A DNA stretch of 64,000 nt. Origin: Candidatus Parcubacteria bacterium. GTDB taxonomy: Bacteria > Patescibacteriota > Minisyncoccia > Phycocordibacterales > Zambryskibacteraceae. Both the position numbers and the translations under genes were made by a program. The notes under the pieces are model-generated. The model was not told where the DNA came from, did no database searches, and saw nothing but the letters and a program-made list of their open reading frames with translations. This document shows positions 29,673 to 63,101 of the stretch, one piece after another (within the stretch, counting starts at the first letter, position 1; the number at the start of each line of letters is the position of its first letter). The stretch spans positions 31,009 through 95,008 of the forward strand of contig JAIFWP010000003.1 in assembly GCA_019661785.1 (NCBI GenBank), written 5' to 3'.

Positions 29673-30204
29673 CAATACCGACCACAAAGTACGACAAGTA
29701 GTCCTTTATCTGCGGGAAAGCTTGTCCTAGGTAGTAGCCGAGGAGAGTTACGATAGTCGACCAGAGCAAGCTCGATATGAGGCTGTAACGGAGGAAACGG
29801 CTCATATTCATCCTTGCTACACCGGCTGCGATAGGCGCGAAGGTGCGTATGATGGGCACGAAGCGGCCAAGGATAATAGCGAGCGCGCCATGCTTATCGA
29901 AGAAGGCTTCAGTCCTCTGCATATGCTCCTCTTTAAGGATTCTCCGGAAGAGCGTGTAACGGCTCAGCCGCTCGATGTATACGCCAATGAAGTATCCTGC
30001 GACGCCGCCCAGGAACCCAGCTACAAATATGAGCGGTATAAGCAAGTATAAATTGAAGCCAACTGTGGCCGCTAGGAGACCCGCGGTAAAGAGGAGTGAG
30101 TCCCCCGGCAGAGCGAAGAAGATGCCCGACTCAAGGAAGACTATGATGAAAACACCGATATATCCGTAGGTCGTAAGGAGATGTGTGGGGTCAAAGAGTG
30201 ACAT
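29602..30204 (-). CDS. DedA family (SNARE-associated/TVP38) membrane protein
   Basis: DedA signature FLESGIFFALPGDSLLFTAG..ILGRFVPIIRTF. It overlaps miaA convergently by 71 nt. Confidence 0.8.
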   Translation of the reverse strand: MSLFDPTHLLTTYGYIGVFIIVFLESGIFFALPGDSLLFTAGLLAATVGFNLYLLIPLIFVAGFLGGVAGYFIGVYIERLSRYTLFRRILKEEHMQRTEAFFDKHGALAIILGRFVPIIRTFAPIAAGVARMNMSRFLRYSLISSLLWSTIVTLLGYYLGQAFPQIKDYLSYFVVGIVIVSLLPIALEWWRERSSRSRTK

Positions 30205-30351
30205 GGGTGATGAAGGAATCGGTCACAGGTCCTCGCGTACTGCGAGGCCTGCGACCCCGCCTCGCGCCGTCGCGCTCCGGCTTTCGATTCCTTATCGCCG
30301 CGCGCTGATGTTCCACTCATAAGCCGTTATAGGCTTCTTCGTGGATCATTG
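30205..30351 (-). repeat. tRNA-Trp-associated element: spacer, conserved core (GAAAGCCGGAGCGCGACGGCGCGAGGCGGGGUCGCAGG), hairpin, ACCUGUGACC, then a duplicated 3' end of tRNA-Trp
   Basis: Coordinates 30205-30227 repeat the last ~18 nt of tRNA-Trp (CGATTCCTTCATCACCCA versus the tRNA's CGATTCCTTCATCGCCCG). The core is shared with the elements at 62899-63014 and 40416-40503. Confidence 0.6.
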
Positions 30352-30422
30352 CGGGCGATGAAGGAATCGAACCCTCGCCAGCGGTTTTGGAGACCGCTGT
30401 TCTACCACTAAACTAATCGCCC
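30352..30422 (-). tRNA. tRNA-Trp (anticodon CCA)
   Basis: Acceptor GGGCGAT/ATCGCCC, anticodon loop CUCCAAA, discriminator G. Confidence 0.85.
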
Positions 30423-30692: not shown

Positions 30693-33407
30693 CTAAGATG
30701 ACCCCATTGCGTCGGTGGTAGAGTGGTCAAATACAACAGACTGTAAATCTGTCGCCCATTGGGCTTCGTTGGTTCGAATCCAACCCGGCGCACTCACATC
30801 GAAGGTAAATTCCCCACCCTTCACATCCACGACGACTGTGCCTCCGGAGAGAACCTTGTTGCCTATCATCATAGTGGCCACAGGGTTCAAAATCTTCGTC
30901 TGTATCAAGCGCTTGAGCGGCCTTGCTCCGTATTGCGGATTGTAGCCCTCCTTGCTCAAGGCCTCTAGCACGGCAGGGCTCACTATGAGCTCAATCTCCT
31001 TCTCTGCCAAGCGCTTCTTGATAGAGTCTATCTGGATGTTCACTATCTCCTTGATAGTATCTTGGCGCAGCACGTCGAAGACCGCTATCTCGTCGAGACG
31101 GTTTAGGAACTCCGGTCGGAACTGGTCTTTGAGCGCGTCGAGGACCTTCTCCTTTATGTTTTCATAATTCTCCCTCTCTCCACCCTTAGAGAAGCCGATG
31201 GACTGCATCTTGTCTATATAATTGGCGCCGACGTTCGACGTGAGGATGATGATAGTGTTCTTGAAGTTCACTACTCTGCCCTTGGCATCGGTAAGCCTGC
31301 CGTTGTCGAGCACTTGGAGGAGGATGTTGAAGACCTCTGGGTGCGCCTTCTCTATCTCATCGAAGAGGATAACCGAGTATGGCCTGTGGCGCACAAGCTC
31401 GGTGAAGTTGCCCGCATCCTCGAAGCCTACATAGCCAGGTGGCGCGCCAATGAGCTTCGACACAGAGTGCTTCTCCATGAACTCGCTCATATCTACGCGG
31501 AGGAGCGCCTTCTCGTCGTCGAACATGAACTCGGCCAAGGCTTTGGTGAGCTCTGTCTTGCCCACTCCGGTAGGACCAAGGAACATGAAGGAGCCGATAG
31601 GACGGTTGGGGTCTGAGATGCCAGCACGGCTCCTCTTCACCGTATCAGCAATCTTCTGCACAGCCTCGTCTTGGCCGACGATGCGGCGTCTTAGGAACTC
31701 TTCCATCCTGCCGAGCTTCTCTGCCTCTTCCTCAAGCATTCTTGATACTGGTATGCCGGTCCAGCGCGAGACCACATCGGCTATGTCTTGCTCGGTTATC
31801 TCTTCCTTCAATATGCGGCGCGAGCTTTGGAGCTTCTTCAGGCGCTTGCTCTTAGTGTCGAGGTCGCGCTCGAGCGCTGGTAGGCGCCCGTAACGAAGCT
31901 CGGCCGCTCGCGAGAGATCGGCTCGCGCCTCGGCTGCCTCGGCCTCTAGCCTCGTGGCTTCGAGAGCTTTCTTTATCTCCTTGATCTCGCCTACGGTCTC
32001 CTTTTCGTTCTTCCACTTCAGGTCTATCTCGGAGGTCTTCTCCTTGAGGTCGGCGATATCCTTCTCTATGACTTTAAGTCTTGCTGCGACTTTGGCACTC
32101 TTCGACTCCTTGCGCAGAGCCTCGCGCTCAATCTCCAATTTAACAACCTTAGAGTGAGTCTCCTGGAGCACAGGGGGCATGTTCTCAAGTGAGATTTTGA
32201 GGAAGGAAGCTGCCTCGTCGATGAGGTCTACAGCCTTGTCTGGGAGGAAGCGGTCTGTAATGTAGCGCGAAGAGAGGTTCACTGCGGCCTTGATAGCATC
32301 ATCGGTGATGTGCACGCCGTGGTAGAGCTCGTAGCGCTCTTTGAGTCCTCGGAGGATAGTCATGGCATCCTCGACGCTTGGCTCGTTGACGTAGACTGGC
32401 TGGAAGCGGCGTGTAAGGGCAGGATCCTTCTCTATGTGCTTCTGATACTCGCGTATGGTAGTGGCGCCGATAGCTCTCAGCTCGCCGCGAGCGAGAGGCG
32501 GCTTTAACATGTTTGACGCGTCGACAGAGCCCTCAGCTGCACCAGCGCCGACTATGGTGTGTATCTCGTCGATGAAAAGGATTATCTTGCCCTCGCTCTT
32601 CTCTATCTCTTTAATAATATTCTTCAAGCGCTCCTCGAACTCGCCTCGGTACTTGGTGCCGGCTATGAGGAGCCCCAAGTCGAGAGAGACCAGCTCTTTG
32701 TCGCGGAGTGACTCGGGCACATTGCCATTCGCCATCCTGAGAGCGAGACCCTCGGCAATAGCAGTCTTACCTACTCCAGCCTCGCCAATGAGTATTGGGT
32801 TGTTCTTCGTCCTTCTAGAGAGTATCTGTATGATGCGTGAAATCTCTTGGTCGCGTCCTATAACAGGGTCGAGCTTGTTAGCCTTAGCGAGCTTAGTGAG
32901 TGAGCGAGTGTATTTGGAAAGGGATTTGAACTTCTTCTCCTGCTTGGGCTCGGCTGGGCCAGCGTGCTTCAACTCCTCGACGAGCTTCACCACAGTCTGT
33001 CTATCAATCTTGAACTTAGTCAGGAGCTCGCGCGACTCACCTTGTACCTCAAGGACTGAGAGGAAGAGATGCTCTGTAGAAACAAATTCGTCTCCAAGTC
33101 CCTGAGCCACCTTGGAAGAAGACTCTATGATATGAGCTAGCTCTGGAGTGAGATATATCTGATATGAGGGCGAGAGGGTTTGGCTGGCTTCAGGATTCTC
33201 TATAGCCTCAAGCACTGAGTCAGTAAGTAGCAGAGTATCGACATCCATCTTGTCGAGTATGGAAATGACCATGCTCTCCTCTTGGAGGATAAGCGCTGCG
33301 AGGAGATGCATCGGGTTTACATGGTTCTGCCCACGCTCAATAGCGAGCTCATGAGCTCGGCGTATGGCCTCCTTGGCTTTGGTCGTGAAATTGCTGAAAG
33401 GTTGCAT
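30693..33407 (-). CDS. clpB: Chaperone ClpB (AAA+ disaggregase with M-domain). The annotated 3' end reads antisense through tRNA-Tyr, so the true stop is uncertain.
   Basis: Two Walker A/B modules ([10 protein letters not shown].., [10 protein letters not shown]..), a long coiled-coil insertion and Clp N repeats. The last ~30 residues are the reverse complement of the tRNA. Confidence 0.85.
30709..30792 (+). tRNA. tRNA-Tyr (anticodon GUA), long variable arm
   Basis: Acceptor GCGTCGG/CCGGCGC, anticodon loop CUGUAAA, T-loop TTCGAAT. Confidence 0.85.
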
Positions 33408-40260: not shown

Positions 40261-40342
40261 CCGCGAGCAATCGCGGCTTCATCATTCACTTTTCATAATT
40301 TGTATTGAAAAAAAGCCAGTTTCTTGAGATACTCAACTGCAC

Positions 40343-40415
40343 GCACCCTTAGCTCAGCTGGTAGAGCAGATCCCTCTTAAGGATAAGGTCGTTGGTTCGA
40401 TCCCAACAGGGTGCA
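40343..40415 (+). tRNA. tRNA-Lys (anticodon CUU)
   Basis: Acceptor GCACCCT/AGGGTGC, anticodon loop CUCUUAA, T-loop TTCGATC. Confidence 0.8.
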
Positions 40416-40503
40416 CAAGTGCGGGGCACTTGTGCAAGCCGGAGGCCGACGGGCCGAGGCGGGGTCGCACAAATCCCGAGCACGGGATTATGTGTGACCA
40501 CAT
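40416..40503 (+). repeat. Third copy of the tRNA-associated conserved element, here filling the tRNA-Lys to tRNA-Leu spacer
   Basis: AAGCCGGAG-GCCGACGGGCC-GAGGCGGGGUCGCA-caaAUCCCGagcaCGGGAUua-UGUGUGACC. The core is conserved and both hairpins are maintained by compensatory changes relative to the other two copies. Confidence 0.55.
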
Positions 40504-40587
40504 GGGCGGGTGGTGAAATGGTAGACACGCCAGTTTTAGGAACTGGTTCCGCAAGGAGTGGAGGTTCAAGTCCTCTCCCGCCCACCA
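40504..40587 (+). tRNA. tRNA-Leu (anticodon UAG), CCA encoded
   Basis: Acceptor GGGCGGG/CCCGCCC-A-CCA, anticodon loop UUUAGGA, long variable arm. Confidence 0.85.
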
Positions 40588-40690
40588 CATAGTTTGTATT
40601 TGACTTTTTTATATTTCGTGATACAGTCGAGCTAGTACCGGTCTTTAACACTGCTACACACTTATATGCGGCTCGTCCGCGGAGGGAGGG

Positions 40691-47618: not shown

Positions 47619-47649
47619 CGGAGCGAAGAAGGCGGAGAGCGGAGCTGTC

Positions 47650-47690
47650 CCCGGCACACACTTGTGTGTGCCGGGGATTTTCTATATTAC
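47650..47690 (+). terminator. Intrinsic terminator
   Basis: CCCCGGCACACACttgtGTGTGTGCCGGGGattttct. Confidence 0.7.
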
Positions 47691-47830
47691 TAAAAGAAAC
47701 TGAAGAATTATCTTGCGTCACGGAAAGAGCCGAAAGGATTTTCGAGCCTCTCGCAGCGCGACTGGCGCGAGAGAGCGAAATTTTCACCAGAAAATTATCG
47801 CGAGGCTAAGAAAATCTTTTCGGCTCTGAA

Positions 47831-62898: not shown

Positions 62899-63014
62899 AT
62901 TGGCGGAAGAGGTGAGATTTGGTCACAGGTCTCGGCTTGCTAGCCAAGCCTGCGACCCCGCCTCGCGCCGCCGCGCTCCGGCTTTCAAATCGTCCTCGCA
63001 AACGGGTTTTGCTG
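62899..63014 (-). repeat. tRNA-Ser-associated element: conserved core plus hairpin plus ACCUGUGACC plus a duplicated tRNA-Ser 3' end including CCA
   Basis: 62901-62923 = CAAATCTCACCTCTTCCGCCA repeats the last 18 nt of tRNA-Ser. The core GAAAGCCGGAGCGCGGCGGCGCGAGGCGGGGTCGCAGG is about 95% identical to the copy at 30205-30351. Confidence 0.6.
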
Positions 63015-63101
63015 CGGAAGAGGTGAGATTTGAACTCACGGTAAGGTTGCCCCTACGCTGGTTTTCGAAACCAGTGCCTTAAACCACTCAGCCACTCTTC
63101 C
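63015..63101 (-). tRNA. tRNA-Ser (anticodon CGA), long variable arm
   Basis: Acceptor GGAAGAG/CTCTTCC, anticodon loop UUCGAAA, T-loop TTCAAAT, discriminator G. Confidence 0.85.

Follow-up and report, generated by a model that had tools for sequence, protein, structure and literature searches.

A probable member, between tRNA-Lys and tRNA-Leu, of a Patescibacteria family of protein-less structured inserts in tRNA and tmRNA genes

Introduction

What is the folded sequence that separates a tRNA-Lys gene from a tRNA-Leu gene in a Candidatus Parcubacteria genome, and to which of the two genes does it belong? The question is raised by positions 31,009 to 95,008 of contig JAIFWP010000003.1, a stretch of 64,000 nucleotides that we call the window. 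A preliminary description of the window had noticed that this spacer resembles the sequences next to a tRNA-Trp gene and a tRNA-Ser gene, and had taken it for a third copy of one modular element (hereafter, copies 1, 2, and 3 are those of Trp, Ser, and the spacer). We find that the spacer is very probably a genuine member of a family of tRNA-end insertion elements, and that it is anchored on tRNA-Lys. The family is found across Patescibacteria (the CPR bacteria), and its members are protein-less structured inserts that occupy the 3' part of tRNA or tmRNA genes and leave the gene intact.

The element in the tRNA-Lys/tRNA-Leu spacer

The tRNA-Lys(CUU) gene (40343..40416, forward strand; ARAGORN, and Rfam tRNA model with 66.1 bits) has no encoded CCA. 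It ends in GGGTGCA-C and runs directly into the element. Downstream, and outside the element, lies tRNA-Leu(UAG), whose CCA is encoded (40504..40587, forward strand; ARAGORN and Rfam). Given the gene ends of ARAGORN, the spacer measures 87 nt, or 88 nt when position 40416 is included. It opens with a 10-bp hairpin at 40413..40435 of the forward strand (GCACAAGTGC, a GGG loop, and GCACTTGTGC, from the sequence and its fold). The first four bases of this hairpin are the last four of tRNA-Lys, and its 3' strand adjoins the conserved core; the preliminary description had reported a palindrome overlapping the tRNA-Lys acceptor, and this is it.

The core of copy 3 occupies 64 nt (40436..40499, forward strand) and begins 19 nt past tRNA-Lys, on the same strand, where the hairpin adjoins AAGCC. 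It reads AAGCCGGAG-GCCGACGGGCC-GAGGCGGGGTCGCA-CAA-ATCCCGAGCACGGGAT-TA-TGTGTGACC, exactly as had been quoted, and is separated from tRNA-Leu by the 4-nt linker ACAT (40500..40503, forward strand). The region folds with -56.9 kcal/mol, which corresponds to z = -8.5 relative to shuffled controls.

All three copies of the window share one fold, made of a first hairpin (P1), a GG linker, and a second hairpin (P2). P1 has a GCC/GGC basal helix, a conserved GGA/GA internal loop, a 4-bp apical stem, and a GACG-type loop. P2 is a 16-bp helix capped by an AGCA loop, in which a G.U wobble lies near the base and an A bulges out of the 3' strand. In copy 3 the core opens with AA, the basal helix of P1 pairs GCC (40438-40440) with GGC (40458-40460) below the GGA/GA internal loop, and the apical stem (40444-40447 with 40452-40455) carries the loop GACG; GG comes next, and P2 spans 40463-40499, with its 16 bp and AGCA loop, the wobble at G40467.U40495, and the bulged A at 40490. 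The assignment of the spacer to the family is supported by this fold, by covariation, and by a covariance model (CM), named R1, with which copy 3 scores 84.8 bits (E 7e-25). Copies 1 and 2 score 89.3 and 91.9 bits. Copy 3 had been called more divergent, and its score is indeed the lowest of the three, albeit only mildly so.

Could the likeness of the three copies be a fortuitous similarity of GC-rich sequence? The region has a GC content of 0.66 in a genome of lower GC, which is the point in favour of this idea. Yet the three copies have the common pattern AAGCCGGAG-N(8-16)-GAGGCGGGGTC, and the pattern AAGCCGGAGN{8,16}GAGGCGGGGTC has 3 matches in the window when 0.00 are expected from 100 shuffles. 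Their alignment keeps the invariant blocks and has compensatory changes in both hairpins, as had been claimed. A covariance model had been proposed beforehand as the way to check the similarity, and it retrieves many further instances with strong covariation. We thus consider chance similarity as refuted.

Family size and taxonomic distribution

We scanned one genome per species for the exact pattern and obtained at least 120 loci. About 100 of the listed ones are real, almost all of them in Patescibacteria, and the rest of the listed matches are chance occurrences in GC-rich actinomycetes. Among the matches listed, carriers are found in Saccharibacteria, Paceibacterota/Parcubacteria, Nomura-, Kaiser-, Taylor-, Campbell-, Taga-, and Berkelbacteria, and WWE3. 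One listed carrier, a metagenome-assembled genome (MAG), is labelled Elusimicrobiales and another Nanoarchaeia, both of which may be binning errors. The latter (locus L113, contig JAQVLH010000114.1, binned as Candidatus Nanoarchaeia, a DPANN archaeon) has a tandem pair of copies 3' of tRNA-Ser, and reflects either a binning error or a cross-domain transfer. The model R1, built from 99 copies, identifies 142 copies in 100 loci of at most 8 kb, i.e., about 40 in the flanks in addition to the pattern copies, which shows that the copies cluster.

The family does not correspond to a known one in the resources that we searched. Rfam 15 identifies only tRNAs in the whole window at the gathering score; at E up to 10, three different copies of the element give no family match, only tRNAs and noise. 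The searched literature, including searches for the literal core sequence, holds no description of the element.

Some cores with at most 2 differences over about 72 positions are found in different classes and at different tRNAs. For example, a tRNA-Leu copy of Saccharibacteria (L053) is nearly identical to a tRNA-Ser copy of Paceibacterota (L076), and the pairs L001/L002, L035/L119, and L084/L109 are further cases. As the stems are free to vary, such near-identity across classes indicates recent horizontal spread.

Covariation and the folded strand

In an alignment of 99 copies (A2), 91.8% of the cells are paired, compared with 74% after column shuffles and 34-44% when the partners are slid, and there are 500 double-sided changes for 144 expected. 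A second alignment (A3) gathers 93 model hits, including divergent variants, and has double-sided change at 28 of 29 pairs; because it was fitted to the model, its covariation counts lean towards structure. The basal helix of P1, invariant in the seed, occurs in A3 as GC, AU, UA, and CG. The flanks of the core also pair in most copies, forming a helix (P0) that closes a three-way junction. The unpaired bases of the junction and of the loops are nearly invariant across classes.

The mismatches in P1 and P2 reveal which strand folds. They are G.U in 61 cases and A.C in 10, and the P2 wobble is G.U in 97 of 99 copies. Hence, the folded strand is the tRNA-sense strand, either as RNA or as single-stranded DNA (ssDNA). 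Two resemblances to known motifs were considered for the core. A K-turn in P1 is not claimed, since a 3-nt bulge and tandem G.A would need a longer loop than GGA/GA. The likeness to a group II domain 5, with a CGC triad and a G.U, is only a remark, as the spacing to the bulge differs.

Anatomy of the inserted unit

A tRNA on the same strand ends 11-90 nt upstream of the element in about 70 of 100 copies. These host tRNAs are specific for Ser, Leu, Val, Arg, Gly, Glu, Asp, Tyr, Trp, Ala, Thr, Pro, and Met. The tmRNA (ssrA) genes also carry the element at their 3' side (L054, L104, L115, L120); the tmRNA copy of L054 is tandem, with SmpB close by. The element had been proposed to be defined by its place 5' of a tRNA T-arm/acceptor module, a view that must be abandoned given its association with the upstream tRNA.

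The core is directly followed by a direct repeat of the upstream tRNA. This repeat always starts at C56 (tRNA ...GGTT|C, core ...GTGAC|C), usually stops at C74, and is perfect over at least 18 nt in about 45 copies. The left flank of the insert is always GGTT|, GGTG|, or AGTG|. The arm just before the core is the reverse complement of the tRNA segment from C56 onwards and follows the T-loop variant of the local tRNA (AATCGA, ACTTGA, ACTCGA, or ATTTGA). In many copies this arm forms the distal strand of a longer palindrome that includes the spacer hairpin (L040, L078), and the Glu copies have a small extra hairpin within the arm. The layout of these flanks and the tandem in L113 define a repeating unit, in the order C56..C74, spacer, antisense arm, core. 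The unit is composed of three hairpins around one junction, spans about 90-135 nt, and encodes no protein. It occurs in tandem in L113, L054, and L029.

The unit occupies specific sites, the U55/C56 position or the extreme 3' end of the gene, and it restores the gene. In the commonest form it lies between U55 and C56 of the T-loop, and the first strand of the 5' hairpin is a replacement copy of C56-C74 that keeps the tRNA intact. In a second form, represented by copy 3 and by L003, L094, L082, L109, and L212, the 5' hairpin begins in the last bases of the tRNA; one of its strands consists of these bases plus a few more, and the other of the complement. Past the core there is only a short repeat. 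The 5' hairpin of copy 3, whose layout recurs in the five other members, is the equivalent of the hairpin that other copies form from the antisense arm, a loop, and its target-like partner. In this sub-type, outside the window, 30 to 708 nt separate the element from the next tRNA, or no tRNA follows.

A third form has a GAAUACUUGGA-loop hairpin in place of the target-derived one. It is found within dead duplicates of tRNA-Ser or tRNA-Glu, or next to a 5S rRNA gene in antisense orientation, and an intact gene is near. At L059 (2400-2900, reverse strand), two cores flank a dead copy of tRNA-Glu(TTC), broken by GC-rich hairpin inserts in the D-loop, anticodon loop, and T-loop, and an intact tRNA-Glu lies just downstream. 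At L112 (4500-4960) and L028 (400-900), the core lies in antisense next to a 5S rRNA gene, and a degenerate partial 5S flanks its other side. In no other context that we found does the element fold from the strand opposite to the host RNA gene.

The two other copies of the window are on the reverse strand. Copy 2 is borne by tRNA-Ser(CGA) (63014..63101; ARAGORN and Rfam). The stretch 62922..63013 comprises a short hairpin in the spacer, the arm GCGAGGACGATTTGA in antisense, and the core (62984-62922, 91.9 bits), and the adjacent 62903..62921 are a perfect 19-nt direct repeat of C56-C74 of the tRNA-Ser, CAAATCTCACCTCTTCCGC, followed by CA, i.e., the displaced original CCA-encoding end. Copy 1 is borne by tRNA-Trp(CCA) (30351..30422; ARAGORN and Rfam). 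Its spacer (30284..30350, from the sequence and its fold) contains a conserved hairpin module, AAUGAUCCAC-GAAG-hairpin-AUGA-GUGGAACAUCA, which is also present in L209, L211, L031, L069, and L001. Then comes the arm GGCGATAAGGAATCGA, antisense to positions 55-72 of tRNA-Trp, the core (30283-30222), and the displaced original 3' end of tRNA-Trp, CGATTCCTTCATCaCCC, a 17-nt repeat at 30205..30221 that adjoins the start codon of DedA at 30204. More generally, this spacer module, the second conserved one besides the core, is shared by many Ser, Trp, and Met copies (window 30300-30349, reverse strand; L209, L211, L001, L031, L069, L103, L006). It is a hairpin of the type AAUGAUCYRC-RAAG-(5-7 bp hairpin)-YGMG-YRGR-WUAUCAUU and starts directly past C74 of the tRNA.

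The window also contains a diverged relative of the element, with no tRNA nearby, at 47727..47826 of the forward strand (CM 21.5 bits, E 1e-4). It is closed by a 17-bp stem (GAGCCGAAAGGATTTTC / GAAAATCTTTTCGGCTC), has hairpins that resemble P1 and P2, lacks the GGGGUCG...GUGACC part, and is located between convergent open reading frames (ORFs), just past a terminator-like hairpin at about 47648-47690. Short variants in L068, L080, L018, and L066 resemble it, and therefore there may be a sister family.

Filled and empty sites

The evidence for insertion comes from the tRNA-Trp locus, where relatives with a DedA of 65-71% identity share the gene order L33, tRNA-Trp, DedA, MiaA. The site is empty at L208, where tRNA-Trp (...GCCCGC|ATG) meets the start of DedA with no spacer. 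It is filled at L209 (90 bits), with the element, a perfect 19-nt repeat, 4 nt, and ATG; at L211 (91 bits), with the element and a decayed repeat; and in the window (89 bits), where the element is followed by the repeat at 30205-30221, directly abutting the ATG at 30204. Comparison of the empty site with the three filled ones identifies the partial tRNA after the core as the ancestral 3' end, displaced by the insertion, and the inserted unit brought its own replacement 3' end. The partial modules at the Trp and Ser loci had been read as remnants of whole tRNAs or att cores. The second half of this proposal holds, since they are att-like direct repeats of C56-C74, but the empty L208 indicates that they are not what is left of extra whole tRNAs.

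The same locus has a peculiar gene start. At L208 (1429-1503), the DedA start codon comes directly after the last base of tRNA-Trp, and in the window (30202-30221, reverse strand) the same ATG comes after the displaced fragment. DedA thus has no room for a ribosome-binding site of its own outside tRNA-derived sequence.

The distribution of encoded CCA agrees with the downstream repeat being the native end of the gene. CCA follows about 11 of 48 downstream repeats (counted by eye), for a background of 29 among the 124 tRNAs without the element at the same loci, and only 6 of 71 upstream tRNA copies have it. More broadly, tRNA genes of Patescibacteria (about 100 loci, L001-L120) mostly continue with C-A-A or C-A-N past the discriminator, not CCA: C74 is present in 115 of the 124 genes and is continued to a full CCA in only those 29. 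This suggests that the tRNA 3' end is partly encoded and then completed by the CCA-adding enzyme. Two routes of insertion were considered. Retroposition of a CCA-tailed tRNA-like RNA predicts CCA after nearly all repeats and is disfavoured by a rate close to background. Snap-back replication is rejected: if the target served as template for the antisense arm at insertion, the repeats should continue through the spacer hairpin, and they usually stop at C74.

For copy 3, two relatives indicate which tRNA carries the element. L212, whose SPFH protein is 56% identical, has the same tRNA cluster, with tRNA-Lys(CTT), a hairpin starting from the terminal GCA, and a diverged core: the basal helix of P1 is flipped to GGC/GCC, P1 is longer, and P2 retains GGUCG...GUGAUC. 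There, tRNA-Leu(TAG) is another 95 nt downstream of the element. At L213 (SPFH 55% identical), the end of tRNA-Lys, ...GCGCACCA, is followed by 88 nt and the SPFH gene, with neither the element nor tRNA-Leu. It follows that the element of copy 3 belongs to tRNA-Lys and that its 4-nt gap to tRNA-Leu, which had been regarded as its partner, is incidental. A metagenome scan with the 3' end of tRNA-Lys for further empty sites returned two unrelated tRNAs only. The tRNA cluster of the window, Gly-Leu(TAA)-Cys-Lys-Leu(TAG), is conserved at L212 (189-1358), but with the Lys-Leu pair inverted relative to the SPFH gene and an ORF with a weak HNH_3 match inserted between tRNA-Leu(TAA) and tRNA-Cys.

The sequence after the core of copy 3 contains a direct repeat of CACA only, plus a similarity that extends into tRNA-Leu: the final C of the core, the linker, and the start of tRNA-Leu read CACATGGGCGGGT, 10 of whose 13 bases match (by eye) CACAAGTGCGGGG, located right after tRNA-Lys. 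From its sequence, this likeness may be a short flanking repeat.

Partner genes and viral contigs

An all-against-all comparison of the ORFs within 2.5 kb of about 100 copies revealed no recurrent protein family, only assorted housekeeping genes. We found neither cargo nor integrase between the repeats or nearby in about 140 copies, and no TnpA/RAYT (Y1 HUH) among the ORFs near the copies. The exact core pattern has 0 matches in 2.9 million viral contigs. A relaxed pattern matches 85 viral loci, with CM support that is strong for L128 only and weak for L145. The tandem pair of L128 (2850-3319), with P1 expanded to about 45 nt, is on a 34.7-kb contig classed as viral, which could be a fragment of Patescibacteria classified in error or a phage that really carries the element.

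These data weigh on the idea that the inserts are scars of integrase-driven elements (prophages, islands, or gene-less CIMEs) that lost their cargo, the core being a leftover attP arm. A direct repeat of the tRNA 3' segment that starts in the T-loop, a regenerated tRNA, and the use of tmRNA are the classic signature of tyrosine-integrase islands, and the element has all three. Nevertheless, we regard this origin as very unlikely. Besides the lack of cargo and integrases and the near absence from viral contigs, independent deletions would not converge on one and the same unit-length remnant of 64 nt, and strand-specific compensatory evolution is unexpected for a double-stranded protein-binding site.

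Resident RNA or mobile unit

The element could instead be a structured RNA that serves the host from tRNA trailers and spacers, in processing, stability, or insulation, and that is co-transcribed with the tRNA and cut out by RNase P and RNase Z. The repeats would then be no more than a trace of its origin. This explanation is compatible with an insertional origin. The transcription of copy 3 would fit it. Promoter-like sites near copy 3 are found only upstream of tRNA-Lys (40305-40333) and downstream of tRNA-Leu (40600-40627), and no terminator-like site (a GC-rich hairpin plus a U-tract) was found in 40417-40503. From this we infer that copy 3 is transcribed inside a Lys-Leu precursor and freed by RNase P and 3' processing. 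The structure is kept by compensatory change at orthologous loci (the window, L209, and L211; L021 vs L091), and the near-invariance of unpaired bases across classes, the selection specific to the tRNA-sense strand, and the lack of a linked mobility gene point in the same direction. On the other hand, only 3 of the 12 tRNAs in the window bear the element, its presence at the same locus varies between relatives, and there are tandem, degenerate, and orphan copies, as well as copies in dead tRNAs and antisense to 5S rRNA. Near-identical cores in different classes are also difficult to accommodate. Furthermore, some spacer hairpins of other copies have U-tracts, and in many copies (L040, L078, L073, L098) such a terminator-like hairpin lies between the tRNA and the core, which would limit co-transcription. 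All things considered, a role for the host is possible but doubtful.

Several observations count against an insertion element that moves. The lone empty Trp site could result from precise loss by recombination between the repeats, rather than from the absence of a gain. The flanking repeat of copy 3 is short and imperfect, and its empty-site comparison is less clean because L213 also lacks tRNA-Leu. The copies at the same tRNA in related genomes (the window, L209, and L211; L021 and L091) differ by compensatory changes, which are at least as compatible with a resident RNA function as with selfish mobility. Among the neighbourhood ORFs, none for a transposase, recombinase, or reverse transcriptase is tied to the element, and our case for mobility is therefore built on comparative patterns only. 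The mismatches of distal P0 look neutral, with no strand bias (24 G.U vs 35 A.C), and so only the 6-8 bp beside the junction can be claimed as functional. Finally, the RNA and ssDNA forms are indistinguishable from comparative sequence.

If the element does move, guided strand exchange is our tentative proposal for how it would do so. The unit would fold as a single strand, either ssDNA or RNA transcribed with the tRNA, and its junction-proximal arm would pair with C56-C62 of the T-arm of the target. This pairing would bring the U55-C56 bond to the three-way junction, beside the 3' end of the element (GUGAC), where strand exchange might occur. Catalysis could come from an enzyme that acts in trans and recognises the conserved junction or, with lower probability, from the RNA itself. 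Patescibacteria are naturally competent, and spread between genomes might proceed by recombination in conserved tRNA sequence, with the upstream tRNA as one arm and the 19-nt repeat as the other.

It is improbable, in our judgement, that the unit moves without a protein of its own in either of two ways taken jointly: as a junction ribozyme that cuts and joins GUGAC|C56 and reverse-splices into T-loops, or as a folded single-strand 'star' moved by housekeeping enzymes that normally handle tRNA-shaped substrates. If true, it would be a minimal structure-only parasite of the T-loop, the most conserved sequence in biology.

A somewhat fainter possibility is a new small ribozyme that cleaves and ligates at the junction of P2 and P0 (GUGAC|C56), yields unit-length or circular RNA, and moves by reverse splicing into T-loops followed by reverse transcription. 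The compact three-way junction with invariant junction purines, the invariant G.U, and the variable length of P2 are in its favour, as is an arm that looks like a substrate strand and is complementary to the bases just 3' of the two junctions. Tandem units (L113, L054) would yield multimeric transcripts, and the HDV-like theta ribozymes of phages are also located directly 3' of tRNAs. Against it stand the lack of an Rfam ribozyme family at E up to 10 for the three copies, helices that accept neither the hammerhead nor the HDV-like topology (fitted by hand), and the absence of a reverse transcriptase near any copy. The downstream repeats lack the CCA enrichment expected of a tRNA-like processed RNA intermediate, and two copies are antisense to a host 5S rRNA gene. 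In addition, Patescibacteria are reported to lack group II introns (PMC13011429).

Significance

Many tRNA and tmRNA genes in the tiny Patescibacteria genomes, which have little to spare, carry a folded insert of about 100 nt. The element explains partial tRNA 'genes' and odd GC-rich spacers reported by annotation pipelines, and its covariance model and defined boundaries make it a ready marker for horizontal exchange among CPR lineages. It is a very small system for gene-less targeting of the T-loop that keeps the host gene working. If its junction is catalytic, or read by a housekeeping enzyme, DNA or RNA would have a new route by which to move. If the element instead works for the host, a major bacterial phylum would have a widespread and undescribed step in its tRNA expression.

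Comparison with known systems

The element lacks at least one defining feature of each of the known kinds that are closest to it. Tyrosine-integrase islands and prophages, and CIMEs, also insert in the 3' part of tRNA and tmRNA genes, with a repeat from the T-loop to the 3' end. In the islands, too, a replacement 3' end saves the gene and the displaced end forms an attR-like repeat. In contrast to them, the element is about 100 nt long, has no integrase or cargo in any copy, and is absent, by its exact pattern, from phage contigs. Strand-specific covariation also marks its three-helix core, beside which the att segment occurs as an inverted copy.

Small structured repeats resemble the element in being short, non-coding, multi-copy, and rich in hairpins. 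They include REP/REPIN (RAYT-dependent), IS200/IS605-derived PATEs, Rickettsia palindromic elements, Correia elements, and MITEs. They are also trans-dependent and have their structure on one strand. Unlike them, the element strictly targets the 3' regions of tRNA and tmRNA genes, regenerates the gene, has a target-derived hairpin, and lacks terminal inverted repeats of fixed sequence. IS200/IS605 elements insert 3' of a fixed short target and without target duplication. The left flank of our inserts is always one of three tetranucleotides, but the repeat after the core is compatible with such insertion only if the element carries the repeat.

Integron attC sites and the forked hairpin attP(+) of the CTX phage share with the element a stem that imitates the double-stranded target, with wobbles or bulges that mark the strand. 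After insertion, one end consists in both cases of an inverted copy, a loop, and the target copy. Here, however, the 'loop' is a conserved two-hairpin domain and the whole unit measures about 100 nt. The element consensus contains none of the attC R/L boxes (RYYYAAC / GTTRRRY), dif-like XerC/D arms, or IntI boxes that we looked for.

HDV-like theta ribozymes are compact RNAs directly 3' of a tRNA and on the same strand, as is the element, and its P2 varies in length as their P4 does. The order of its helices fits P2/P3/P4 (by hand), but no 5' strand pairs with GGCGGGG as P1. This order bars the nested double pseudoknot, and the Rfam models give no match. A hammerhead, with its CUGANGA and GAAA strands, was also considered and rejected. 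The junction strands of the element are AA, GG, and none, with GG and not GAA joining P1 to P2, and Rfam has no match. A GAUGAGA-like stretch is present in one sub-family of the element only.

Within the same phylum, group I introns occupy tRNA genes of Patescibacteria (PMC13011429) and, like the element, place a structured sequence in these genes without harm. They interrupt the anticodon loop, are hundreds of nt long, and self-splice, whereas the element has 64 nt plus a hairpin and is located at the T-loop or past it, with a complete tRNA preserved upstream. It looks akin to two known kinds, the small structured repeats and the integrative elements that target tRNA genes.

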